Source of the DNA: an uncultured Bacilli bacterium | Lineage (GTDB): Bacteria; Bacillota_I; Bacilli_A; RF39; UBA660 | Direction: 5' to 3' | NCBI GenBank assembly: GCA_947626125.1 | Contig: CANQRA010000002.1 | Location: forward strand, 1-61,435 | Length of the DNA: 61,435 nucleotides | Shown here: positions 19,205-50,595 of the stretch, in pieces | How the letters are laid out: each line of letters begins with the position of its first letter | Position numbering within the stretch: position 1 is the stretch's first letter | The notes under the pieces: model-generated | What the model saw: only the letters and a program-made list of their open reading frames with translations | Database searches by the model: none | Told to the model about the DNA's origin: nothing | Program-made: the position numbers and the translations under genes

Positions 19205-20554
19205 TTACAATCTTTTTTTGGCATTTTCCATCATTCTTCTTTTTATATTCTCATCTAAATGAAATAATAAACCGTATCCTTTAGCTTCTAAATCTAGTTC
19301 GAGCCTTTGGTCTTCCCTTACTTTATGATAAAATTTACTGATTATTTTATACTGCATTTTATTTAAAGGTATTAAATTTTCTAAAAATAGCTCTACTAAT
19401 TCCGCCAAAGATAAGCTTAAATAAGTATTTTTTAAATATGCATAACTAATTACTACATCATTTCTAATGCCATAAGTTTTATATATTTTTCCTTGTTCCC
19501 TATCTAATAAAGCATTTTTAAATTGGTTAAACTTGCCCTTATCGGCTAAATAATATTTCATTTTTTCCCCTAAACTTAGTTTAATTAAAGGTATATCTTC
19601 TAAACAAACACCAAGAATAACCGCATAATCCATATCACTGTAATAATACTCCCCTAAAAGTTCTAAACCTAATAATTGGGATTCATTATAATCTAAATAA
19701 GGAAGCAAATATATATATTTACAAATATCTTCGGGATATATAGGCGTTCTTTTTAAATAATTAAGTCTCCCTTTTTCTTTTTTTCTGACCTTTTCATAAA
19801 TATTACTAAATAAGTCATTATCTGCATCTAATAACATTCTAATTTTTTCACAAGTTCTTCCATAATGATTTCCTATATTAGCTTTAGTACAATGAATTCT
19901 TGTGGCGATCATTTCTAGTGTACAATGTTCATCACTAATAACATGTTCATAAAAACAATAATAATGAAAAGGAGTTAAATAAATTCTTAAAACTAGTAAC
20001 AAATCATTACTACTTAATTTATCTAAATAGTTATCTTTACTAGGTACCGAAAAACTTTCTTCTAAAGGCACTAATGCAATATTCATATATCTTCTTAAAT
20101 AATTTAAATTATTTAAAGAAATATTTAATATTTGGCATAACTCTTCATCTGAAGGTAAGCTTTGTTCATGAACTTGACAATATTCAATAATTTGCAAGAA
20201 TTTTTTCTTAGCTAAAACAAGATATCTAGGTAATTTAATAAAATTATTCCTACAACTTAAATATTCTCTCATTTTATTAACAATACATACATTAAGATAA
20301 TTATGAAAGTTGCCTTTATCTAAGTTATAATGGTAAATAGCTTCGACTAAAGCCATATTACCCTCACTTATTAATTCTAATATTTCTGGTTCTTTTAAAT
20401 TTTTATTAAAATGCGTAGCTAGATAAAAAACAAGGCCTAAATTACCATGAATTAATTCTTCATAATCATGATTTTCTATATATTGTCTTTCTTCTATTTC
20501 AGATAATTTTCTATAACTACTAATTTCTTGTTTATACTTTTCTAACTCACTCAT
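19205..20554 (-). CDS. Degenerate sigma-70-family paralog with C-terminal extension (449 aa)
   Basis: Region 2-like LISEGNMALVEAIYHYNLDKGNFHNYLNVCIVNKMREYL. Region 4-like LTPFHYYCFYEHV...TLEMIATRIHCTKANIGNHYGRTCEKI. Extension shares the PI.P.DI.KYIYL plus HTH module with the two upstream paralogs. The start overlaps the upstream stop (ATGA at 20551-20554). Confidence 0.65.
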   Translation of the reverse strand: MSELEKYKQEISSYRKLSEIEERQYIENHDYEELIHGNLGLVFYLATHFNKNLKEPEILELISEGNMALVEAIYHYNLDKGNFHNYLNVCIVNKMREYLSCRNNFIKLPRYLVLAKKKFLQIIEYCQVHEQSLPSDEELCQILNISLNNLNYLRRYMNIALVPLEESFSVPSKDNYLDKLSSNDLLLVLRIYLTPFHYYCFYEHVISDEHCTLEMIATRIHCTKANIGNHYGRTCEKIRMLLDADNDLFSNIYEKVRKKEKGRLNYLKRTPIYPEDICKYIYLLPYLDYNESQLLGLELLGEYYYSDMDYAVILGVCLEDIPLIKLSLGEKMKYYLADKGKFNQFKNALLDREQGKIYKTYGIRNDVVISYAYLKNTYLSLSLAELVELFLENLIPLNKMQYKIISKFYHKVREDQRLELDLEAKGYGLLFHLDENIKRRMMENAKKRL

Positions 20555-22569
20555 TTTCTGTCCCTCTTTTTTAACTGTAACATAAGCAGTAAATCTTGCG
20601 TATCTTCATTTAAAGGTTCACCATGTAAATATTTTTCTAATAAACCTTCCTCTTCTAAAGATAAATTATAATTAATAGAATGAAAATAACTTATTAATTC
20701 ATCCAGAGTATATTGTTCAAATTCTCTAAAATTATACTTTAAAATTGGTTCTTCCATAATGGCAAAACGATATAATAACATTTTATAACGGTCTTCGGTC
20801 ATCCTAGCAAAACGAGCAAATATTTTTTCACTAACGAAACTTCCCATTATTTTACTTTGTAAAGAAGCATAAATCTTCTCTACTTCTTCTAACGGTAATT
20901 GAAGTATTTCGGCATACTCATAAATAGAATACTTGTTCATACTAAATAATTTTAAAGCATAAATAGTTCTTTCTTGTTCAGTTAATTGATATTTAACAAA
21001 TAAAAATTGTAAGATAGCTACTTTATCTAGGGGTTGGTCATCTAGGCCTGCAAATTTAACTCCATAGTTATTCTTTAATTCAGCTATTTTTTCTTTTAAA
21101 AGTCTTTGATTATTTTTTAAATATTCTCTTAATTTAGCCATTATTTTAGAACGATGTCGATAAATACTATCTTCATAAGAATTTAAATAGTTAGCAACTT
21201 GACTTAAATCATCAGGTTCATCTTTAAATACACAATTATAAATAATATAATAATCTAAGGGTGAAAGAATACTTTTTAAAAATAAATTAAATTCTCTTCT
21301 TTTTTCTTTATCTTCCGTTCCATCACTAGCTTTATAATAAGACATTGCCACATTTTTAATCGCATTTACATCAGGCATATTATCATCAATCCTAGTTATA
21401 GATTCAACTGTATTTACTTTAGCCCCAATAAAGTTATATATATTCATTCCATATCTTTGTAATAAATCGGTTTTAAAAAGAGTAAACTTATCATAATTAG
21501 CTAAGGCTTCTTCTAATTTTTTATTTAAACTTTCCTGACATTCTCTTACTTCATCTTTCGTTATATGTAATAATTTAGCATAATCTACTAAAGTAAAATT
21601 ATATTGACCAAATAAGCTTAACTGTAACATGTTCTTTTCTAATTCATTTAAATTATGCGCAACATATAAATATTTAATTATATCAATAGGTTCCACTGGT
21701 TCATCTTTAAATGTTCCCTGAAATTTTTCTTGCTTTATTTTCTTTAAAGCCACTTTATACTTATCACTGCTAAAGTCTAAATATTCTTTAATTTTATTTA
21801 ATGCATTTGCTTGTCTTTTACGAACTGACTCATGACTAACATTAAAATAAGAACCCATCGCGGTTAATGTTAAAGGATTATTTCTTAAAATACGGTTATA
21901 AATAATAAAGTATTCTATAGGCGATAAGACATATCTTAAAACTTGGATTAACTCAGCATTATATATATTATTTAAAAGACTATCTTCACTTATATTACTT
22001 TTATCTTCAATTACTTCATATAAAGGTTTACCATTAGAAGTAGAATTATCGATATCAAGAGTTATATTATGCATAATATTCATTAAACCATAATAAGATT
22101 CTTCCGTGATATTTAAAGCTTGGCAAACTTCTTCTTGACTAGGTTTTCCTAAGTGTTGATTGGCTCTATCTTGAAGATATTGCTGATATTTATTTTTTAA
22201 CCAAAATATTTCTGGTGTTTGACTAAATTCGGAATCATATTTAGCTAAATAATGTAAAATTCTTTGTTTTATCCGAAAAAATGCGTAAGTAGAAAAAGCC
22301 CCCTTTTCTGGATCATACTCTCTTGTCGCCGTTATTAAACCTAAATTTCCCTCTTGAATTAAGTCAAAAAAATTAATTACCGAACATCGAGAATAATATT
22401 TTTTGGCAATATTTACCACTAACCGCAAATTAGATTGGATTAATAAATCATATTTCTTTTCCCGCGCTAATTGCTTTTGTTCTTCAATGCTTAATATAGG
22501 GTAAGCCTTAATTTCTTGTAAATAAGCCTTAACACTATCAGACATTAAATAAGTTAAATCTTCCTCCAT
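20551..22569 (-). CDS. Sigma-70-family paralog with duplicated region-4 modules (672 aa)
   Basis: Region 1.2 YLQEIKAYPILSIEEQ. Region 2 NLRLVVNIAKKY...DLIQEGNLGLITATREYDPEKGAFSTYAFFRIKQRI. Region 4 LSPIEYFIIYNRI...LTAMGSYFNVSHESVRKRQANALNKI. A second copy reads LSPLDYYIIYNCV...LSQVANYLNSYEDSIYRHRSKIMAKL. Confidence 0.75.
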   Translation of the reverse strand: MEEDLTYLMSDSVKAYLQEIKAYPILSIEEQKQLAREKKYDLLIQSNLRLVVNIAKKYYSRCSVINFFDLIQEGNLGLITATREYDPEKGAFSTYAFFRIKQRILHYLAKYDSEFSQTPEIFWLKNKYQQYLQDRANQHLGKPSQEEVCQALNITEESYYGLMNIMHNITLDIDNSTSNGKPLYEVIEDKSNISEDSLLNNIYNAELIQVLRYVLSPIEYFIIYNRILRNNPLTLTAMGSYFNVSHESVRKRQANALNKIKEYLDFSSDKYKVALKKIKQEKFQGTFKDEPVEPIDIIKYLYVAHNLNELEKNMLQLSLFGQYNFTLVDYAKLLHITKDEVRECQESLNKKLEEALANYDKFTLFKTDLLQRYGMNIYNFIGAKVNTVESITRIDDNMPDVNAIKNVAMSYYKASDGTEDKEKRREFNLFLKSILSPLDYYIIYNCVFKDEPDDLSQVANYLNSYEDSIYRHRSKIMAKLREYLKNNQRLLKEKIAELKNNYGVKFAGLDDQPLDKVAILQFLFVKYQLTEQERTIYALKLFSMNKYSIYEYAEILQLPLEEVEKIYASLQSKIMGSFVSEKIFARFARMTEDRYKMLLYRFAIMEEPILKYNFREFEQYTLDELISYFHSINYNLSLEEEGLLEKYLHGEPLNEDTQDLLLMLQLKKRDRK

Positions 22570-22611
22570 TAATTCACCCCCAAAAAATATCTTTTATTAT
22601 AACGCTTTTTC

Positions 22612-25600
22612 TTAAAAAAATATACCTCTTTTTATATTTGTGGGAACTCGGCTATAAATATCTCTTTTCTTCATTTCTAAATCTAAATTATATAATAAAT
22701 TATAAACTTGTTTTACTTCCTCTTCCGTCATTAAATCTTCTTTATGAATATCATACATAGCTTCTAAACTTTTCACAGTCTTGCTTTTTAAATATTTACC
22801 ATAACGTTCTAATAATTTCATGGCTTCTTTTTTACTGGTTCTTTCCCAAACAAAAGCCTGTGGGTCCGAAGCTATAATTAAATCATTTAAAATAGTAGTT
22901 GGTAACTTCCCATCTTTATTACCATTATTAAGAAAATTACTATAAATATCTCTCTCTGTTTGTTCCATATATTCAATATTATTAATAAAATAGTCATAAA
23001 CATCCGCCGGAGTATATTGTCTTTTATAAACAATTCCCTCACTATATCTACCAAAAGCAATCTTTACATCGGTAATAATATTTTCTACAAATCTCTGTGG
23101 ACAATTTAAGCCTAATTCTTGGATAATTTTACTTGATGAAAGCTTTTCCCTACCATCCATGCCATAATATAAATCAAATATTTTTTTGGCAAGGACTTTA
23201 TCCCCATAATATGGAATGTCACCATTAGTAAAATTATGAGCATAATAATCATAATCAAAATGAAACCCAGGATTTTCTTTCAAACCTCTTAGTTTTAAAT
23301 GACTTCTTATTAAAATATTATCAATACATTCCCGATTCATATTGTATTTTTTAGCCAGGTCCGAAATACTCATGTCATTTTGATAATAATCGATTAATTT
23401 AGCTCGGTCCGGTGGACAAAAATATCTTAAGTATGGTTCAATATCCCGAGCATAATTTAAATAACCAGCAATTTCTCCTCTTAAATATTTTTGAATATTG
23501 ATGATAGCTTCGTAATAACTTTGCCGTATATTATTGGCTGTTACATCATAATATGTAGCTAAATCATCTATACTCATATAAGGATAACCAAAAAGGGAAA
23601 ATAAATGACATAAAATATCTTTCTCTCTTTTTTTAATTGGCACATGAATATCAGATAAAACTTCACTTAAAAGGGTGGGAGAAATAACTTCTTTAAATTG
23701 GGAAAGTTCAATACCAAAGCGATAACAATCTATGTCAAAGATAGTTTTATCAATAAGGTTATTAACACAAACTTCCGTAGAATGATAAAGCTTGGCAATA
23801 TCACTAACAGACATATTATCATCTAAATAATGCATTAAGATATAATAATTCTTCGCTTCTAAAGGAACTTTACCCTCCTTTATATAAGACAAATAAAGTT
23901 GTTTATTAAGTTCACTTTTATAACCTATTCCACAGTAAATCTTTTTACATTTATAAATTAATTGATAAATAATCCGCCGAACTTCATCTTCAGATATATT
24001 AAAAATCTCGGCAATTTCCCTTCTTGTATGTTCAGGGCCATTAACCCCAAAATATAAATCTAACATTTGAATATTTTGTTCACTAAATTTATCCCTAAAA
24101 TTCGTTTTAATTTCTAGCCATTTTTCTTTAGTAGATACAAATCTATAATCAATATGATAATATAATTTTTCTAATTTATTTATTAAATATTTTCTAATTT
24201 TACTTACCATAGAATTAGGATAAGCTTGGTTAAAGACATCTTTAGGAATAACATTAAAAACGTAAGCTTCTAAATATAGTTGTTGTTCTTCATTAAACTC
24301 TTTTCGATTAGCTAAAAAAGTTTGATATACTTTAGGAGGCAAATAGTTATAATCAGCATAATAAATAGTTGTATTAATATCTTTTTCAATTTCTTTCCCC
24401 GGTAAAATTTGCTCTTTTGGCGTGGAAAAGAACTTTTGCAATAAAGCTAATTCATTTTCTTGAAGGGTATAATTAACATCTTCAAAATATTGTAATACTT
24501 CTTCTAAAGATAAATTAGCATATTTTTCATCTAAATCATTATAGTTTATCGGATTTTCTTGCGCTAAATGTTGACTCATAAAATAATTAGCAAAGATGGC
24601 TGTTTTCCATGTCTTTAGCAAACTATCTTTAAAATCATTGTAAGGAGCAACATCTTGAAACTTAGCATTAATTTTTTGGGTTAGACTAACACATATATCT
24701 TTGGCTTCCTTTACAGTAATGTTTAAATGAAAGGCTACATCATCCATGCTATATGCATAGCCACTTAAAAAAATTAATTTGTACATTTCTTTTTCTAAAG
24801 GAAGTAAATCATTTTCTAAATAAATATATTTAACTATATCATATGGGGAGATTGGTGTAGTTTTATATTTTTCTATAAAGCCTTTTTCTTTTAGCCTTTG
24901 ATAAGCAGCCAAGTAAACAGAACTATCTTCTTTAATATATTTTTTAGCTATGGTTAAGGCTTTTTTCTCAATTTGTCTAACTCTTTCTCTAGTTATATGA
25001 AAAACTTTTCCTACTTCTTCCAAAGTTTTTTCTTCATCACCTAACCACCGTTCATATAAGACATAGTATTCTAAAGGGGTTAAGATGCTTTTTAATACTT
25101 TTTTTAAATCATCGCTAACAATAGTATCAAGAATATTCTCATAATTAGAACTATTTTCATCAGGGATGACATCTGATAATTCTGAATCATTATCATCGTT
25201 AATAGGTAGATTAATACTTATTGTTCTTTGCCCCAGGGCATACATTAAAGATGTATATTGAGCTGGCGTTATTTTTAAAGATGCCATTATTTCTTCTTCA
25301 GTTAAATTGATACCTCTTTGACTTGCATCTTGCATTAAACGTTTATATTTCCCTATTAATAAATTCACATGAATAGGTACCCTAATGGTTTTATCTTGCC
25401 CATATTTCGCCCGAGTAATTGCTTGTCTAATCCACGGAACAGCATAAGTCGAAAAAGCCCCTTTCTCGGGATTATATGTTTCAACCGCGCGCATTAAACC
25501 AATATTACCTTCTTGAATAATATCTAAGATATTTAAATGTTTTAAACTTCGAGCATAATAATAGGCAACTTTAACAACTAAGCGGAGATTACTATTTATT

Positions 25601-25770
25601 AAAGTAGTTCTGTCTCCTTTTGCCCAAGCTTCTCTTTGCTCCTCAGCACTTAATAATGGATATGCCGAAATACTATTAATATACATTCTTAAAGAATCAT
25701 TAGTAAAATAGTTTAGTACTTCTTCATCACTAATATTTTCAATCTCTTCAATCTTTTCAATTTCCATCAT
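22612..25770 (-). CDS. SigA-like sigma-70 factor fused to a C-terminal multi-HTH extension of about 770 aa (1052 aa)
   Basis: aa 20-280 form a complete sigma. Region 1.2: MYINSISAYPLLSAEEQ. Regions 2.1-2.4: NLRLVVKVAYYY...DIIQEGNIGLMRAVETYNPEKGAFSTYAVPWIRQAITRA. Region 3.0: TIRVPIHV. Region 4.2: TLEEVGKVFHITRERVRQIEKKAL. At least six further region-4-like HTH segments follow. Confidence 0.85.
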   Translation of the reverse strand: MMEIEKIEEIENISDEEVLNYFTNDSLRMYINSISAYPLLSAEEQREAWAKGDRTTLINSNLRLVVKVAYYYARSLKHLNILDIIQEGNIGLMRAVETYNPEKGAFSTYAVPWIRQAITRAKYGQDKTIRVPIHVNLLIGKYKRLMQDASQRGINLTEEEIMASLKITPAQYTSLMYALGQRTISINLPINDDNDSELSDVIPDENSSNYENILDTIVSDDLKKVLKSILTPLEYYVLYERWLGDEEKTLEEVGKVFHITRERVRQIEKKALTIAKKYIKEDSSVYLAAYQRLKEKGFIEKYKTTPISPYDIVKYIYLENDLLPLEKEMYKLIFLSGYAYSMDDVAFHLNITVKEAKDICVSLTQKINAKFQDVAPYNDFKDSLLKTWKTAIFANYFMSQHLAQENPINYNDLDEKYANLSLEEVLQYFEDVNYTLQENELALLQKFFSTPKEQILPGKEIEKDINTTIYYADYNYLPPKVYQTFLANRKEFNEEQQLYLEAYVFNVIPKDVFNQAYPNSMVSKIRKYLINKLEKLYYHIDYRFVSTKEKWLEIKTNFRDKFSEQNIQMLDLYFGVNGPEHTRREIAEIFNISEDEVRRIIYQLIYKCKKIYCGIGYKSELNKQLYLSYIKEGKVPLEAKNYYILMHYLDDNMSVSDIAKLYHSTEVCVNNLIDKTIFDIDCYRFGIELSQFKEVISPTLLSEVLSDIHVPIKKREKDILCHLFSLFGYPYMSIDDLATYYDVTANNIRQSYYEAIINIQKYLRGEIAGYLNYARDIEPYLRYFCPPDRAKLIDYYQNDMSISDLAKKYNMNRECIDNILIRSHLKLRGLKENPGFHFDYDYYAHNFTNGDIPYYGDKVLAKKIFDLYYGMDGREKLSSSKIIQELGLNCPQRFVENIITDVKIAFGRYSEGIVYKRQYTPADVYDYFINNIEYMEQTERDIYSNFLNNGNKDGKLPTTILNDLIIASDPQAFVWERTSKKEAMKLLERYGKYLKSKTVKSLEAMYDIHKEDLMTEEEVKQVYNLLYNLDLEMKKRDIYSRVPTNIKRGIFF

Positions 25771-38130: not shown

Positions 38131-38262
38131 TTTTCCTCCTTATTTTATTTTTAAGAAAAGCTTCCGACTAGGGAAGCTTAAAAATTTATTTTTTAAAGTT
38201 CCCCTCGGTAGGATTTTTAAAAGACATCTTCCCTACTGTCTTCGGTTTTTTCTTTTCTTGTC
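38131..38262 (-). promoter_or_regulatory. Structured rplJ leader (L10-leader-like) with attenuator hairpin
   Basis: Minus strand contains CCGAAGACAGTAGGG...CCTACCGAGG pairings. A perfect 8-bp hairpin AAGCTTCC-CTAGTC-GGAAGCTT (38179-38158) is followed by TTTCTT, just before the RBS. Assigning it to the Rfam L10 leader family is an inference. Confidence 0.5.
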
Positions 38263-38267
38263 ACTTA

Positions 38268-42233: not shown

Positions 42234-42788
42234 TTAAAGTTTTTTTGCTAATGTTTTATAAATTTTCACAATGCGAACAATAATTTCTTTATCATCTATA
42301 TCGATTTTATTAGTGCTTATTAAGGTAGCTAGTCCATTTGCATATAACCAAACATGCATAAATAATTCCTTAGCTTCCGCAAAAGTATAGCCCTGTTTAT
42401 TAACTAAATTGATGATGGCTCCTTGATTCCACTTCTCATTTAAAACATCATCAATGCTTTTCCATTTTAAATTATTGGATAGAAATAAACTAATAAATAA
42501 ATTTTTATAGTATTTAGCAAATTCTACATAAGCTACACATAATGTAACTAAAGCTTTTTTATTATCAACTCGACTAGTTATAAACTCATCATATTCGCGA
42601 TAAATTTCTTTATAAATATCTTCTTTTATTTCATCCATATTATTATATATCCGATACAATGGTTTAGTAGATATCTTTAATTCTTTAGCTAAGTCTCTTG
42701 CGTTAAGAGAATCCCAGCCCCTCTTATTAATCATAACCACAGCTTTTTTAATAATGGCTTCTTTTTCCAACTTACAACTTGCTGGCAT
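42234..42788 (-). CDS. TetR/AcrR-family transcriptional regulator
   Basis: 184 aa. N-terminal HTH WDSLNARDLAKELKISTKPLYRIYNNMDEI. Confidence 0.8.
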   Translation of the reverse strand: MPASCKLEKEAIIKKAVVMINKRGWDSLNARDLAKELKISTKPLYRIYNNMDEIKEDIYKEIYREYDEFITSRVDNKKALVTLCVAYVEFAKYYKNLFISLFLSNNLKWKSIDDVLNEKWNQGAIINLVNKQGYTFAEAKELFMHVWLYANGLATLISTNKIDIDDKEIIVRIVKIYKTLAKKL

Positions 42789-42802: not shown

Positions 42803-42850
42803 AGTAACTATTGTTACCATAATTATATTATGTTTAATAAGTGTTGTCAA
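42803..42850 (-). promoter_or_regulatory. TetR gene promoter with palindromic operator candidate
   Basis: Minus strand: TTGACA (42850-42845), 18 nt, TATAAT (42826-42821). The perfect inverted repeat GTAAC-tatt-GTTAC (42803-42816) lies between the -10 and the RBS. Confidence 0.6.
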
Positions 42851-42880
42851 ATTAAATTATTCTGCACGTAATTAAAACTC

Positions 42881-42968
42881 TTGACAACCCATTTGTTTTA
42901 TTATATATTTAAGTTACGAAAGGGCGATTGTGGCGCGTTTGGGCTGCAGTCCGTCCTTCGTTTTTTTT
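42881..42968 (+). ncRNA. Candidate small RNA cassette 1 (own promoter, GC-rich hairpin, U-tract)
   Basis: TTGACA (42881-42886), 17 nt, TATATT (42904-42909). Then ACGAAAGGGCG-ATTGTGGCGCGTTTGGGCTGCAGTC-CGTCCTTCG followed by T8. Confidence 0.45.
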
Positions 42969-42990
42969 AGAAAAAGTATTATTATACTTC

Positions 42991-43078
42991 TTGACAACCT
43001 ATTTGTTTTATTATATATTTAAATTACGAAAGGACGATTGTGGCACGTTTGGGCTGCAGTCCGTCCTTTTCTTTTTTT
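42991..43078 (+). ncRNA. Candidate small RNA cassette 2 (tandem copy, 110-bp period)
   Basis: Same TTGACA-17-TATATT. Then AAAGGACG-ATTGTGGCACGTTTGGGCTGCAGTC-CGTCCTTT followed by TCTTTTTTT. Confidence 0.45.
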
Positions 43079-43082
43079 AAAA

Positions 43083-43152
43083 GCCATTTTAAAGAGCCGT
43101 TTTAAGAACCATTTTAAGAGCCGTTGACATTGGAGGTCTTTTGCATTAAAAT
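43083..43152 (+). promoter_or_regulatory. Promoter of J-domain gene 1 with iteron-like direct repeats
   Basis: Four 12-13-bp repeats (gCCAttttaaaga / gCCGttttaagaa / CCAttttaagag / CCGttgaca), the last merging into TTGACA (43124-43129). Then 17 nt and TAAAAT (43147-43152). Confidence 0.55.
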
Positions 43153-43182
43153 AACAATCGTTTATAAAAAAGGGGGACCTTT

Positions 43183-44844
43183 ATGAATTTTTATGAAGCA
43201 TTAAAAGTATTAGATTTAGATAGCAATTACACAGAAGAAGAATTAAATAAGAAGTATCATGCCTTAGCCAAAAAATATCACCCAGATGCTTTAACTAATA
43301 AATCTGCCGAAGAAAAAAAGGCTGCAGAAAACAAAATGAAAAAGATTAACTTGGCTTATGATACTTTAAAAAAAGATAGAAAAAAGAATTATTCAAATAG
43401 ACAAAGTAGTAATAATGATAAACAAAATGGTAAAAAAAGTAATAATAGTAATAATAGTAATAATGATAATGATAATGGCTGGGAATTTAGTTATTGGAAT
43501 AATATACTTAACATTATAAAAAGCTATAATGATGCTAATATTACTAAAAAGCCCGAATTTGCAAGTGTTGCTTCTAGTTTTAAATCGTTCTTCACTAATT
43601 ATTATCTTAATATCGTGATGACTGTTACAAAAAATGAAGTGGATAAATTATTTAGAGAATTTAAAAACGGGGTTAGAGATTGGTATATTAAATTAAAAGA
43701 TATTTATTTTAAAGAACACAATATACCAAGAGATATTAGTTTTACAATTAATGAAAATCGTTCCTTTGATGAATTTTACGAATCATTGGCAAACTTTAAA
43801 CATGGTTATGATAATGTTATAAAAGAAATAGATGATATAATAAATCCTTATAAACTTTATACCGATTATGAAGTAGCCAAAAAAGATATTGAAAAATTAA
43901 GAGAAGAAACAATTAAAAATGTTTGTAGAAATTATAATAACAAAGATTATTTTTATCAATGCTTAAGAACTAATCTTGATAATTTATTTAAATATTATTC
44001 TACTAATATAGCATTATATACAGAATTAGAAAAAATAATAAAAAACAACAATTTACCTTTTCAAAGGAGAATGGAGGACCTCAGAGAAAATGTAAACAAT
44101 CCTTTATTTTATCTTTATTATATTCAATTAAAGTTAGATGTTAATAATTTATTAGATTACCAAAGTCATGAGAGAGAAATCGCCAATATTGAAAATAATT
44201 TAACCCAAAAATATAATGAAACTGTAAAAAATATACAGGATGAAGAAGAAAAAAAGGAGTTGTATTTTTTCTATAAATCCATAGTACATTATTTAAGAAC
44301 GCAAAAAGATGTTAGTTTTCAAAGCCTTAAGCTTCTTAATGAAATTGATTTTAATAATTATGAAGAAGTTTTCAAAATCCACGATAATATTGATAATAAT
44401 TTAATTACTAATAAAAAAGTCGATATTTATATAAATATATCCGCACAAGATGTCATAGCTTCTAGACATATTAAAATTGATGGCGAAGAATATGATATGT
44501 TATTAAATAATGGTGAAAATGTAATTTGTGAAACTTATAATAATATGGATAATAATTTTATTTCTCTAGATGAATTTATGACTGAGGCTTATAAAGACTT
44601 TATAACCTTCGATTGGTATGGCGAAGCTTGTATTGGACTATATCATTATAATGGCTTACTCCTATGTGTCTATAAAGGTCATTTACAATTTTTAAGCTAT
44701 CCTATGATAACCAATGTTGAATGGTATCCAGACCATAAATTTAGTATGTTTCAAAGCAAAGACTATGTTAGAAGCTTACTTATTAATACTTGCTATAGTG
44801 AAATTGAAAAGTTTAAAACCAACAATAACAATTTAAAAAAATAA
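43183..44844 (+). CDS. J-domain protein with large uncharacterised C-terminal domain (553 aa)
   Basis: N-terminal J domain NFYEALKVLDLDSNYTEEELNKKYHALAKKYHPD (HPD at 43279-43287)...INLAYDTL. An Asn/Ser-rich linker follows, then about 450 aa with no recognisable motif and no DnaJ Zn finger. Confidence 0.75.
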   Translation: MNFYEALKVLDLDSNYTEEELNKKYHALAKKYHPDALTNKSAEEKKAAENKMKKINLAYDTLKKDRKKNYSNRQSSNNDKQNGKKSNNSNNSNNDNDNGWEFSYWNNILNIIKSYNDANITKKPEFASVASSFKSFFTNYYLNIVMTVTKNEVDKLFREFKNGVRDWYIKLKDIYFKEHNIPRDISFTINENRSFDEFYESLANFKHGYDNVIKEIDDIINPYKLYTDYEVAKKDIEKLREETIKNVCRNYNNKDYFYQCLRTNLDNLFKYYSTNIALYTELEKIIKNNNLPFQRRMEDLRENVNNPLFYLYYIQLKLDVNNLLDYQSHEREIANIENNLTQKYNETVKNIQDEEEKKELYFFYKSIVHYLRTQKDVSFQSLKLLNEIDFNNYEEVFKIHDNIDNNLITNKKVDIYINISAQDVIASRHIKIDGEEYDMLLNNGENVICETYNNMDNNFISLDEFMTEAYKDFITFDWYGEACIGLYHYNGLLLCVYKGHLQFLSYPMITNVEWYPDHKFSMFQSKDYVRSLLINTCYSEIEKFKTNNNNLKK

Positions 44845-44924
44845 TTAAGAGAAAAGGGAAAAACTTTTCTTTTTTTGGCTTAGCAATACTATTCTAGAGC
44901 GTTTTATGGAGCTTTTAGAGAGCC

Positions 44925-44953
44925 TTGACATTAAGACGCTTTTGTGGTAAAGT
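44925..44953 (+). promoter_or_regulatory. Promoter of J-domain gene 2 (duplicated with the gene)
   Basis: TTGACA (44925-44930), 17 nt, TAAAGT (44948-44953). The downstream leader AACAATCGTTTATAAAAAAGGGGGA is identical to that of gene 1. Confidence 0.55.
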
Positions 44954-44984
44954 AACAATCGTTTATAAAAAAGGGGGAAATATA

Positions 44985-46616
44985 ATGAATTTTGATGAAG
45001 CCTTAAATATATTAGGATTAAATAGTAATTATACAGAAGAAGAATTAAAAAAGAAATATTACGCTTTAATTAACCAATATTATCCAGATACTTTAACCAC
45101 TAAATCAGAAGAGGAACAAAAAGAATCAGCAGAAAAATTAACACAACTAAATAAAGCAAAAGATATTTTAAATAATGCTTTAAAAGGTCAAAAAGGAGAT
45201 TTTGATTTAAAGGAGTATAAGGGGAAAATACTAAGCTTTGTTGAAAAAAACAGAAATGTAAGCCATAATCTCCGTAAAGAATTTATGGGAACAATATATA
45301 ATTTTAATATATTTGTAACTAAATACATAGTGAAAGTTACTAATGCTGATAGTAAAAACGCCGTAGATAATATCTTTGAAGATTATAAAAAAGAATTGAA
45401 AGCTTGGTATGATAGATTTAAAAACATTTATTTTATGAGATATCTTATCCCTAAAAAATTTGATTTTGATACAAATATCAATTTATCGATTGATGAATTT
45501 TATAATGAATTAGAAAAGCGGAAAAAGGAAAGTCTAATGATACAAGATGTACAAAAAGAAGTAGATGATATTATTTCATCTTATATGTCTGTTACTTATT
45601 ATGAAGATGTAAAAGATGAAATTGAAAAATTGAGAAAAGAAATGGTTGAAAATATTTTAAATATTGATTCAAATCTTTATAATTATGAAGATAATAAAAA
45701 TTATTACTTAGCTCAACTTAAAATGGTTATTGAAGTATTACTAAAAAGAATATCCACTAATAAACCACTTTATTTAAATTTATTGGGTTTAGTTACGGAA
45801 AATTCTATACCTTTTAATGTCGAAGAACTTCATGAATCTCTTACCGACTATTTATTTCCAATTTATTATCAAGAATTTAAAGAAAATATTAAGCATTATT
45901 TAGAATTAGATGATTATTATGAAGAAACTCATAATTTGAACAACACTTTAACAAGTAGATATCATGCCGCATTAAAAAGTTCAAATGATGCATCTTTTAA
46001 AGCAAAAATAACAAACCTATATCATAAAATCAAAAACTTCCTTTATAAAGACCATAATTTCAGTACGAAAACTCTTCATTTTCTAAGTAAAATTGATTTT
46101 AATAATTATGATGAGGCAGTAAAAATATTTGATAAAGTAGTAAATAATATTATAACTCTTGATAATGTTGAAATTTATTTATGTAATTTATTAGGAATGC
46201 CTTCAGTATGCATTAAAATTAATGATAAAAACTATGCATTAGCCAATATTGATGGCAAAGATATTATTTGTGAATGTGAAAATGTTAATGGCCCACAAAT
46301 GTCTCTAGATACATTTATGGATAATGCTAGTACTTTCTTTGTTAAATTTATAGAACATAATGAAGAGATAATTGGCCTTTATAGATTTAATAATATCATT
46401 CTTGGTTTATGTAACGGTCGTTTAACATTCTTTAACGATGTAGAGGTAACAAACATAGACATTCCACCAAAAGATAAACTTGGTAAATTTAGAAGCAAAG
46501 ATTATGTTAAAGGCTTATTAATTAATCAATATTATCAATATATAGAGTTATGCAAAAAAGAAAAGAAAATAGTAACTTTAAGTGAATTAGAAAATAGTAA
46601 TAATTTAAAAAAATAA
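44985..46616 (+). CDS. J-like-domain paralog with HPD replaced by YPD (543 aa)
   Basis: Start moved to ATG 44985 (RBS GGGGGA). The track start at 44925 is the TTG of the -35 box. MNFDEALNILGLNSNYTEEELKKKYYALINQYYPD (YPD at 45081-45089). The C-terminal domain is collinear with the 43183-44844 product, and both end in NNLKK. Confidence 0.75.
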   Translation: MNFDEALNILGLNSNYTEEELKKKYYALINQYYPDTLTTKSEEEQKESAEKLTQLNKAKDILNNALKGQKGDFDLKEYKGKILSFVEKNRNVSHNLRKEFMGTIYNFNIFVTKYIVKVTNADSKNAVDNIFEDYKKELKAWYDRFKNIYFMRYLIPKKFDFDTNINLSIDEFYNELEKRKKESLMIQDVQKEVDDIISSYMSVTYYEDVKDEIEKLRKEMVENILNIDSNLYNYEDNKNYYLAQLKMVIEVLLKRISTNKPLYLNLLGLVTENSIPFNVEELHESLTDYLFPIYYQEFKENIKHYLELDDYYEETHNLNNTLTSRYHAALKSSNDASFKAKITNLYHKIKNFLYKDHNFSTKTLHFLSKIDFNNYDEAVKIFDKVVNNIITLDNVEIYLCNLLGMPSVCIKINDKNYALANIDGKDIICECENVNGPQMSLDTFMDNASTFFVKFIEHNEEIIGLYRFNNIILGLCNGRLTFFNDVEVTNIDIPPKDKLGKFRSKDYVKGLLINQYYQYIELCKKEKKIVTLSELENSNNLKK

Positions 46617-46641: not shown

Positions 46642-46896
46642 TCAGTCTTTTTTATTATTCTTTGATAATGTCCTACTCATAGGTTTTTCTTGTTCTACTT
46701 CTTCACTAGCTCCCACAACAGGTACAGTAATTCCCGAAGTATCATATTCATAATATGGTCTATATCTTCCTGAAGTAACGGGATAATGTTGAAGATAAAA
46801 GCTATTCGTCACTTCTCTTCTTTTTGGGAATGAATCTTGTCTATATTTAAGTTTACTATAATCAATATTTGGTCTTTTGATATCGCTAACTTTCAT
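46642..46896 (-). CDS. Hypothetical small protein downstream of pheT
   Basis: 84 aa, Tyr/Pro/Arg-rich. No motif recognised. Confidence 0.4.
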   Translation of the reverse strand: MKVSDIKRPNIDYSKLKYRQDSFPKRREVTNSFYLQHYPVTSGRYRPYYEYDTSGITVPVVGASEEVEQEKPMSRTLSKNNKKD

Positions 46897-50355: not shown

Positions 50356-50560
50356 TATATCCTCCTTATAATAAAAAACTCATAAACAAAGCAGGTAAAG
50401 GACGACATAGCCGCGGTACCACCTTTATTTATGAATTTATTCATACACTTTAATTCTTAATGTGAATTACTCAGTAAACACTCCTTAATTGAAATTCCAT
50501 TTATTATGTATCTATAAATATTTCCACCATATATATTTATTCTCTTAATTAGATATAATA
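50356..50560 (-). promoter_or_regulatory. T-box leader, Phe-specific (pheST)
   Basis: Minus strand has AGAGA and GGTGGAA stem I elements. The specifier-loop candidate is GGAAT-TTC-A (UUC at 50493-50491). The conserved T-box AAAGGTGGTACCGCGG lies at 50426-50411, followed by a terminator ending in TTTTTT just before the RBS. Confidence 0.8.
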
Positions 50561-50595
50561 AATCTACTTTGATTAATTCTTTGTGTTTCTAACTA

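Follow-up and report, generated by a model that had tools for sequence, protein, structure and literature searches.

The 61,435-nucleotide (nt) stretch of contig CANQRA010000002.1 analysed here (the window), from an uncultured Bacilli bacterium, carries two adjacent plus-strand genes, copy 1 and copy 2, for large J-domain proteins that belong to a small, undescribed, metagenome-only family of class C (type III) J proteins of very AT-rich uncultured gut Bacilli. Copy 1 has the HPD tripeptide and copy 2 reads YPD at the same position. The explanation we favour, with a probability of roughly 0.6, is a new class C J family arranged as a tandem array, in which the J domain of copy 2 has recently decayed. 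The YPD tripeptide is real and inherited, and it is a recent change within one species-level lineage, since the other copies, including the orthologs of copy 2, keep HPD. To judge from its sequence and that of its relatives, copy 2 is a functional gene whose J domain very probably no longer works as a J domain. The pair and its parts lie at the following positions:

43183-44844, plus strand: copy 1, a class C J-domain protein with HPD, 553 amino acids (aa) (open reading frame (ORF), Pfam and pairwise alignment; AlphaFold predicted local distance difference test score (pLDDT) 85.3)
43183-43386, plus strand: J domain of copy 1, residues 1-68 (Pfam DnaJ 44.6 bits; Foldseek; Lys53 kept)
43387-43476, plus strand: disordered Asn/Ser-rich linker, copy 1 residues 69-98 (pLDDT about 30; alignment gap)
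43477-44394, plus strand: all-helical region, copy 1 residues 99-404 (pLDDT about 90; no Pfam, PDB or Foldseek relative)
44419-44841, plus strand: beta-rich domain (residues 413-514, motif ISLDEFM), C-terminal helix and basic tail (residues 517-553)
44845-44883, plus strand: intergenic AT-rich hairpin (weak) with a T-run, probably the terminator of copy 1
44985-46616, plus strand: copy 2, 543 aa, with the architecture of copy 1 apart from a short linker; intact ORF
44985-45182, plus strand: J domain of copy 2, residues 1-66 (Pfam DnaJ 37.3 bits; YPD; Thr53 at 45141-45143)

A first-pass annotation of this DNA had described two collinear paralogs that each open with a J domain, and on both counts it was right. 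The 553-aa and 543-aa proteins align end to end with 35% identity (E = 2e-91), and both J domains score above the gathering score of the Pfam DnaJ model (PF00226, 27.8 bits); the N-terminal helices of the AlphaFold model match solved J domains with a Foldseek probability of 1.0. The description of the first 35 residues as almost superimposable was overstated; identities number 24 of 35 there and 36 of 66 in the J domain as a whole. This is the lowest J-domain identity of any pair within a genome (55%, against 58-82% elsewhere). The Asn/Ser-rich linker is found in copy 1 only, as had been reported, and appears as a 29-residue gap in the alignment. The mechanical ORF of copy 2 begins with a TTG at 44925, within the -35 box of its own promoter. 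Because a GGGGGA Shine-Dalgarno sequence lies 7 nt before the ATG at 44985, and the homologs all begin there, with MNF or MDF, we place the true start at this ATG.

The codons confirm both tripeptides at the positions first assigned to them: HPD is encoded by CAC CCA GAT at 43279-43287 and YPD by TAT CCA GAT at 45081-45089. YPD occurs in three distinct intact alleles of 543 aa, namely in the window, in a sister strain (L017), whose copy 1 is 94% identical to that of the window, and in the protein P0072. Copy 2 of the sister strain reads ...SQCYPD... in four independent assemblies (L017-L020) and the P0072 allele reads ...NQYYPD..., so a sequencing error is ruled out by the TAT codon common to all of them. 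Orthologs have CAT where these alleles have TAT, a single C-to-T transition. All 17 other complete copies at the examined loci have HPD, among them P0011, the copy-2 ortholog of the next-closest genome (L021), and P0012-P0015; YPD is confined to copy 2 of the window, L017 and P0072. More distant family members have a degenerate tripeptide at times, HSD in two, HTD in one and NPI in one. On the three points that the first-pass annotation had singled out as decisive, both N-terminal segments pass the J-domain hidden Markov model, the body belongs to no known family, and YPD recurs.

A further change accompanies the loss of the histidine. Helix III reads KLTQLN in the YPD lineage and K[MLF]K[KEG]IN in all other copies; position 53 is Thr in the YPD lineage only and Lys everywhere else. 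Lys53 aligns with K48 of Escherichia coli DnaJ, which is one of the basic residues contacting DnaK (PMC8215388). The histidine itself, H33 of DnaJ, hydrogen-bonds the interdomain linker of DnaK, and its replacement abolished stimulation of the Hsp70 ATPase in every system tested (PMC8215388). Natural variants of HPD, such as HPE, are found in about 1% of J domains (PMC10410713). An overall loss of basic charge from helices II and III of copy 2 was considered and rejected, with totals of 5-6 against 6-8 and no outlier; K53T alone stands.

The pattern of selection differs between the two J domains. Ratios of nonsynonymous to synonymous substitution rates (dN/dS), estimated by the Nei-Gojobori method, are 0.04-0.20 for the J domain of copy 1 and 0.43-0.51 for that of copy 2 against its HPD-bearing ortholog, while the bodies give values of about 0.2 (copy 1) and 0.23-0.31 (copy 2). 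Inside the YPD lineage the copy 2 J domain has accumulated five nonsynonymous changes and one synonymous change, and the difference between the J domains of copies 1 and 2 is significant (Fisher p = 0.011). The body of copy 2 is thus under purifying selection and its J domain is relaxed. Between the two window copies synonymous sites are saturated, with dS of about 1.0 in J domain and body alike, which rules out recent gene conversion between them.

Beyond the J domain, the remaining 450 or so residues are confidently modelled and have no recognised relative. In copy 1 numbering the model consists of the J domain (1-68), the linker (69-98), a helical region (99-404), a beta domain (413-514) and a C-terminal helix (517-550), and the pLDDT rises from 85.3 for the full protein to 89.4 for the part lacking the J domain. 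The first-pass annotation had recognised nothing in this body, neither a Gly/Phe (G/F) region nor a Zn finger nor a client-binding domain, and Pfam, NCBIfam, PDB and Foldseek searches agree. Pfam finds nothing beyond the J domain in the two window proteins and 37 family members, and NCBIfam matches do not extend past the J domain and score far under their cut-offs. A sequence profile search of the PDB gave a best E of 0.14. Foldseek against the PDB, with full and J-less models, reached a best probability of 0.25 and a template modelling (TM) score under 0.2 outside the J domain; the low-probability matches, to LG/galectin sandwiches, DH-PH and BAR-PH folds, were not taken as evidence. Foldseek against BFVD returned J-domain matches only, as did PHROGs, and PADLOC returned none. 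No relatives were found in phage and plasmid records (tblastn) or in IMG/VR, and with the window being ordinary housekeeping chromosome we rejected a mobile or viral origin.

The family is narrow in its close members and somewhat broader at a distance. Out of 5.8 billion proteins only 16 qualified as close homologs, every one of them from rabbit-gut ('Lapin') metagenome-assembled genomes (MAGs) or metagenomes, and a scan of GTDB species genomes likewise placed the close relatives in 'uncultured Bacilli' MAGs of the rabbit ('Lapin') gut series. Both window proteins align end to end with 15 close homologs. A profile of the J-less body retrieved 46 clusters at E <= 1e-3 among 1.84 billion representatives; these are nearly all 500-620 aa long, most of them 530-620 aa with an N-terminal J domain, and the match begins after residue 75-125. 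The Pfam DnaJ domain, and nothing else, is present in 35 of the 37 family members scanned. Of these clusters 20 were looked up; none has a name, nearly all of their content is metagenomic, and two of them include NCBI MAG assemblies.

Conserved residues of the body lie mostly in the hydrophobic core, with the motifs I(D/T)FxN and (I/V)(S/P)L(D/E)E(F/L) kept in distant members, and no catalytic-looking constellation is seen among them. A basic C-terminus is a family-wide property: the last 10 residues hold 3.7 Lys or Arg against 1.5 expected, and none of 2000 permutations gave as high a value. Distant members, too, occur repeatedly as tandem or near-tandem pairs, and no neighbouring gene is conserved across seven genomic contexts. 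A link with DNA replication was considered, as dnaB, polC or topA adjoin three of the first five contexts, and was dropped when two further contexts proved to be NAD-synthesis and cell-wall neighbourhoods. At one distant locus (L022, 9788-12019) a 743-aa member stands beside a 589-aa paralog, between rplI and dnaB, and contains an internally duplicated module, '...KFYxENNINESxVKETINYDCTLxEFYxQLL...'.

Class C J proteins share nothing but the J domain with DnaJ and are extremely heterogeneous (PMC8215388; PMC10410713), and the window proteins fit this class. In neither could a G/F region, a Zn finger or a DnaJ C-terminal domain be found. Against the class A DnaJ model TIGR02349 they score 47.2 (copy 1) and 25.0 (copy 2) bits, in the J region only and with a cut-off of 377, and Pfam DnaJ_C and DnaJ_CXXCXGXG give no match. 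The class B CbpA-type model NF007618 yields 24.3 bits against 403, N-terminal only, again with no DnaJ_C. The HscB models give 30.7 bits against 46.75 (TIGR00714, residues 18-64 only) and 30.9 against 189 (NF003449). DjlA has an N-terminal transmembrane/TerB part and a C-terminal J domain; its model NF006948 reaches 26.7 bits against 162, over profile positions 200-265 only, and here the J domain is N-terminal. The TopJ models NF037946 and TIGR03835 do not match the window proteins at E <= 0.001, and several distant members match them over residues of about 9-62 only, the J domain, with 40-53 bits against cut-offs of 300-512. Judged by the HPD expected of a functional J domain, copy 1 has the tripeptide and copy 2 does not, and we file copy 2 as 'J-like'.

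Among known systems, HscB (Hsc20) is the closest functional analogue. There too the J domain runs straight into a helical client-binding region without a G/F region or Zn finger, and weak Foldseek alignments continue past the J domain into the helices of HscB; our proposal gives both the same logic, with the J domain firing Hsp70 and the body presenting one specific client. HscB differs in being about 170 aa long with a three-helix bundle, whereas the proteins described here have about 550 aa, a helical region of about 300 aa, a beta domain and a basic tail, and the isc link is not conserved, only one of seven contexts lying near iscS/nifU. For the pairing of an HPD with a non-HPD protein the closest analogue is Pam18/Tim14 with Pam16/Tim16, in which an HPD-bearing J protein likewise stands beside a paralogous J-fold protein lacking the histidine. 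In Pam16, however, the loss of HPD is ancient and universal, and here it marks one recent lineage: only the window, L017 and P0072 have YPD, and P0011-P0015 have HPD. Pam16 and Pam18 are also small proteins associated with the membrane, and it is their J-type domains that bring the two together.

Among large J proteins restricted to one lineage, the nearest from AT-rich relatives of the Bacilli are TopJ/MG200 of the Mycoplasma terminal organelle. These likewise belong to class C, come from AT-rich Bacilli/Mollicutes-type organisms and join an N-terminal J domain to a long unique body. The TopJ body has an acidic, proline-rich region and an EAGR box; TopJ models match nothing past the J domain here, and these body features were not separately searched. 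Type IV or 'J-like' proteins, such as human DNAJB13 and the Plasmodium type IV Hsp40s, resemble copy 2 in matching the J-domain model with a non-HPD tripeptide. That category is descriptive, not a homologous family, and the change in copy 2 is a single recent transition with HPD in its orthologs.

The array occupies one chromosomal site. In syntenic order this comprises a TetR-like gene (minus strand), the J gene or genes (plus strand), and an 84-aa ORF, pheT and pheS (all minus strand), and the TetR-like gene adjoins the array in all relatives with a contig reaching that far (L001, L005, L009). The number of J genes varies between genomes:

1 copy: L001 (one copy detected)
2 copies: window, L009/L013, L014, L017
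3 copies: L021
at least 3 copies: L007
5 copies and, on a separate contig, a fragment: L005/L012, L016

Neighbour-joining trees of the body resolve several paralog types, in combinations that differ between genomes, and paralog bodies within one genome are 37-64% identical. In the five-copy L005 array the J-coding 5' ends have been homogenised by gene conversion. There, c2 and c3 are 97% identical in the J domain and 45% in the body, and at the nucleotide level the same two genes (L005/L012, Lapin-017 bin6) are 96% identical in the J region and 66% in the body. One copy of the array, P0004, is visibly a chimera that joins B-type ends, N- and C-terminal, to an A-type middle.

Each protein combines an N-terminal J domain, a flexible linker, a helical region of about 300 aa, and a beta domain of about 100 aa that leads into a helix and a basic tail. 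In the model that we propose, the J domain of copy 1 would dock on ATP-bound DnaK/Hsp70 and trigger ATP hydrolysis through its HPD, and the body would bind a specific client or an anionic surface and so direct Hsp70 there. The family grows and shrinks by tandem duplication at its one site between the TetR-like gene and pheT/pheS, with occasional gene conversion at the J-coding 5' end. In the lineage of the window, one recent C-to-T transition gave copy 2 its H33Y, and Lys53 has gone as well; the J domain now evolves under relaxed constraint and the body is still constrained. Copy 2 is most likely 'J-like', with no stimulation of Hsp70 and with the binding function of the body retained; it may function independently of Hsp70, be a competitor of copy 1 for a target, or form an assembly with copy 1. 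Copy 2 most likely represents incipient subfunctionalisation or partial loss of function and not a conserved regulator.

Several points weigh against this model. Within copy 2, J domain and body show no significant contrast (p = 0.51), substitution counts are small in a domain of 66 codons, and the J domain of L021_c2, an ortholog with HPD, is evolving fairly fast as well. That the YPD domain is inactive is an extrapolation from mutants of the H33Q type. No Hsp70 gene appears among the larger ORFs scanned in the window, and the Hsp70 partner is an assumption. The basic tail, finally, hints at an anionic surface, a membrane or nucleic acid by its composition only.

The first-pass annotation had gone further, taking the active and crippled pair for a specialised module with a regulatory or decoy partner. 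Part of this stands, as the J domain of copy 2 does look degraded by its dN/dS and the loss of Lys53. The design of a module does not, because relatives carry 1, 2, 3 or 5 copies and every other copy has HPD. A dedicated two-part module, in which the YPD protein regulates or acts as decoy, for example in hetero-oligomers like those of Pam16/Tim16 with Pam18/Tim14, could account for the stable inheritance of YPD in three intact alleles and for purifying selection on the body of copy 2; a strong promoter for each copy and an identical leader make co-expression plausible, and J-like partners of J proteins do exist in mitochondria. Yet the HPD/YPD pairing is limited to one species-level lineage, the nearest ortholog and the other paralog pairs being HPD/HPD; a single copy was detected in one relative (L001), and the combinations of paralog types vary between genomes. 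We therefore regard such a module as unlikely; a regulatory or decoy role of copy 2 is possible and is not required by the data. Also unlikely is a reading in which the body is a new fold combination that would target Hsp70 to a cellular structure not so far known to require it in bacteria (membrane or nucleic acid, to judge from the basic tail), tandem paralogs would diversify this targeting, and the YPD copy would be a J-dead, Pam16-like subunit that co-assembles with the HPD copy and tunes the recruitment of Hsp70.

It may also be asked whether the YPD domain is still active, with Tyr33 replacing His, possibly together with a co-adapted or specialised Hsp70 paralog, so that both copies would be working co-chaperones. 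Pro34, Asp35 and Tyr25 are kept and the domain passes the Pfam threshold; HPE variants are known in nature (PMC10410713), and HSD and HTD are seen in distant family members. We nonetheless find this doubtful, given the role of the HPD histidine in bonding the DnaK linker and the uniform effect of its replacement (PMC8215388); the loss of Lys53 and the raised dN/dS point to relaxed and not to shifted constraint. The least probable of the alternatives, in our view a very unlikely one, is that the array is a fast-diversifying conflict family, anti-phage or inter-bacterial, whose bodies would recognise foreign proteins while the J domain would recruit Hsp70 as an effector or be a hijacking module. 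One to five copies at a single locus, the wide divergence of paralog bodies within a genome, recombinant copies and independent tandem pairs in distant relatives would all fit such a family. Against this, PADLOC gives no match and PHROGs match the J domain only, phage, plasmid and IMG/VR collections hold no relatives, the neighbourhoods are of housekeeping genes and not defence islands, and orthologous bodies are under purifying selection with dN/dS of about 0.2-0.3. A tandem class C J family with recent decay of one J domain is thus the explanation that we retain.

The regulatory elements of the locus are given below.

42234-42788, minus strand: TetR-family regulator gene, divergent (Pfam TetR_N 24.6 bits, cut-off 24)
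43124-43152, plus strand: copy 1 promoter TTGACA-17-TAAAAT (consensus scan, 11 of 12 positions)
43153-43177, plus strand: copy 1 leader with Shine-Dalgarno, AACAATCGTTTATAAAAAAGGGGGA (identical to the copy 2 leader)
44925-44953, plus strand: copy 2 promoter TTGACA-17-TAAAGT, TG-extended (consensus scan; aligned with the copy 1 promoter)
44954-44978, plus strand: copy 2 leader with Shine-Dalgarno, AACAATCGTTTATAAAAAAGGGGGA, 25 nt (identical to the copy 1 leader)

That the duplication takes in the promoter and an identical leader was correctly noted at the outset. With synonymous sites between the copies saturated (dS of about 1.0), the identity of the 25-nt leaders reflects constraint or gene conversion and not recent duplication. 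The leader core CGTTTAT(A/T)AAAA..GGGGGA is kept 5' of the first copies in L001, L007, L009 and L014. Between the genes, the hairpin at 44845-44883 folds with -9.4 kcal/mol (z = -1.7), weak evidence for a terminator. Just 5' of the J promoters lie phased repeats of about 12 nt, RGCCNTTTTA, on the plus strand, four at 43084-43128 and three at 44897-44930, the last of which overlaps the -35 box. A similar arrangement is present at copy 3 of L007 and absent from L001 and L009. These repeats could be a UP-like element or activator sites.

A perfect inverted repeat GTAAC-N4-GTTAC, GTAACTATTGTTAC, at 42804-42817 lies just 3' of the -10 box of the TetR-like gene and is identical in the TetR-like leader of all relatives. 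A related TAACAATCGTT occupies the equivalent position of both J leaders (43152-43162 and 44953-44963), and TAACAATNGTT, a pattern defined post hoc, has three matches in the window (the TetR leader and the two J leaders) where 0.5 are expected. A TetR operator common to the J leaders was rejected: the TAACAATNGTT pattern had been chosen after the fact, the two J sites are paralogs of each other, and L001 and L009 do not keep the version of the J leaders. A regulatory link of the TetR-like protein to the J genes, suggested by the motif TAACAATNGTT, is a weak lead. No CIRCE-like site for heat-shock control by HrcA was found in the window with three mismatches allowed.

Between the TetR-like gene and copy 1 lie two tandem units of 110 nt (42871-43082, plus strand), each with a near-consensus promoter, a hairpin and a T-run. 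The promoters read TTGACA-17-TATATT (42881-42909 and 42991-43019), and the hairpins have a guanine plus cytosine (GC) content of 60%, against 29% for the window, with dG of -24 and -22 kcal/mol (z = -3.8 and -4.2). No Rfam family matches these units, which look like two small RNA mini-genes of about 50 nt. A single hairpin unit occurs in L017 (1-65) and L021 (about 405-480), with stem-compatible G.U/A-U changes, and the more distant loci have none. Pairing of the hairpin with the J leader (stem CGAUUGU, leader ACAAUCG) is not conserved in L021 and was judged to be chance.

The window as a whole is an ordinary stretch of chromosome with 28.6% GC, carrying tuf, fusA, rplK/A, uvrA and pheST. The 84-aa ORF (46642-46896, minus strand) lies just 3' of pheT, convergent with copy 2; it is 81-84 aa long in every related locus and belongs to no Pfam family. 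The 240-nt leader of pheS-pheT (50356-50595, minus strand) gives no T-box or other Rfam match at the gathering threshold, and the only Rfam match in the window is an L10 leader at 38145-38263. Elsewhere, three successive large ORFs of 449, 672 and 1052 aa (19205-25770, minus strand) each open with sigma-70 regions 1.2/2/(3)/4 and continue into long C-terminal extensions with no Pfam match except one HTH_28 in the largest; such a group of 'giant sigma-like' proteins is unusual.

It is class C J proteins that set the place at which Hsp70 acts, and for most of those in bacteria no role is known. To these the present family adds an architecture, a confidently modelled body of 450 aa for which Pfam, NCBIfam, the PDB and viral structure sets offer no relative. 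As long as no client has been identified its practical value stays modest; the organism is uncultured, and the contrast between HPD and YPD is a young, lineage-specific event, not a new regulatory principle. The variation in copy number across these rabbit-gut Bacilli nevertheless provides a natural series for the duplication and divergence of Hsp70-targeting modules, one that includes conversion of the J-coding end and the loss of a catalytic histidine caught in the act.

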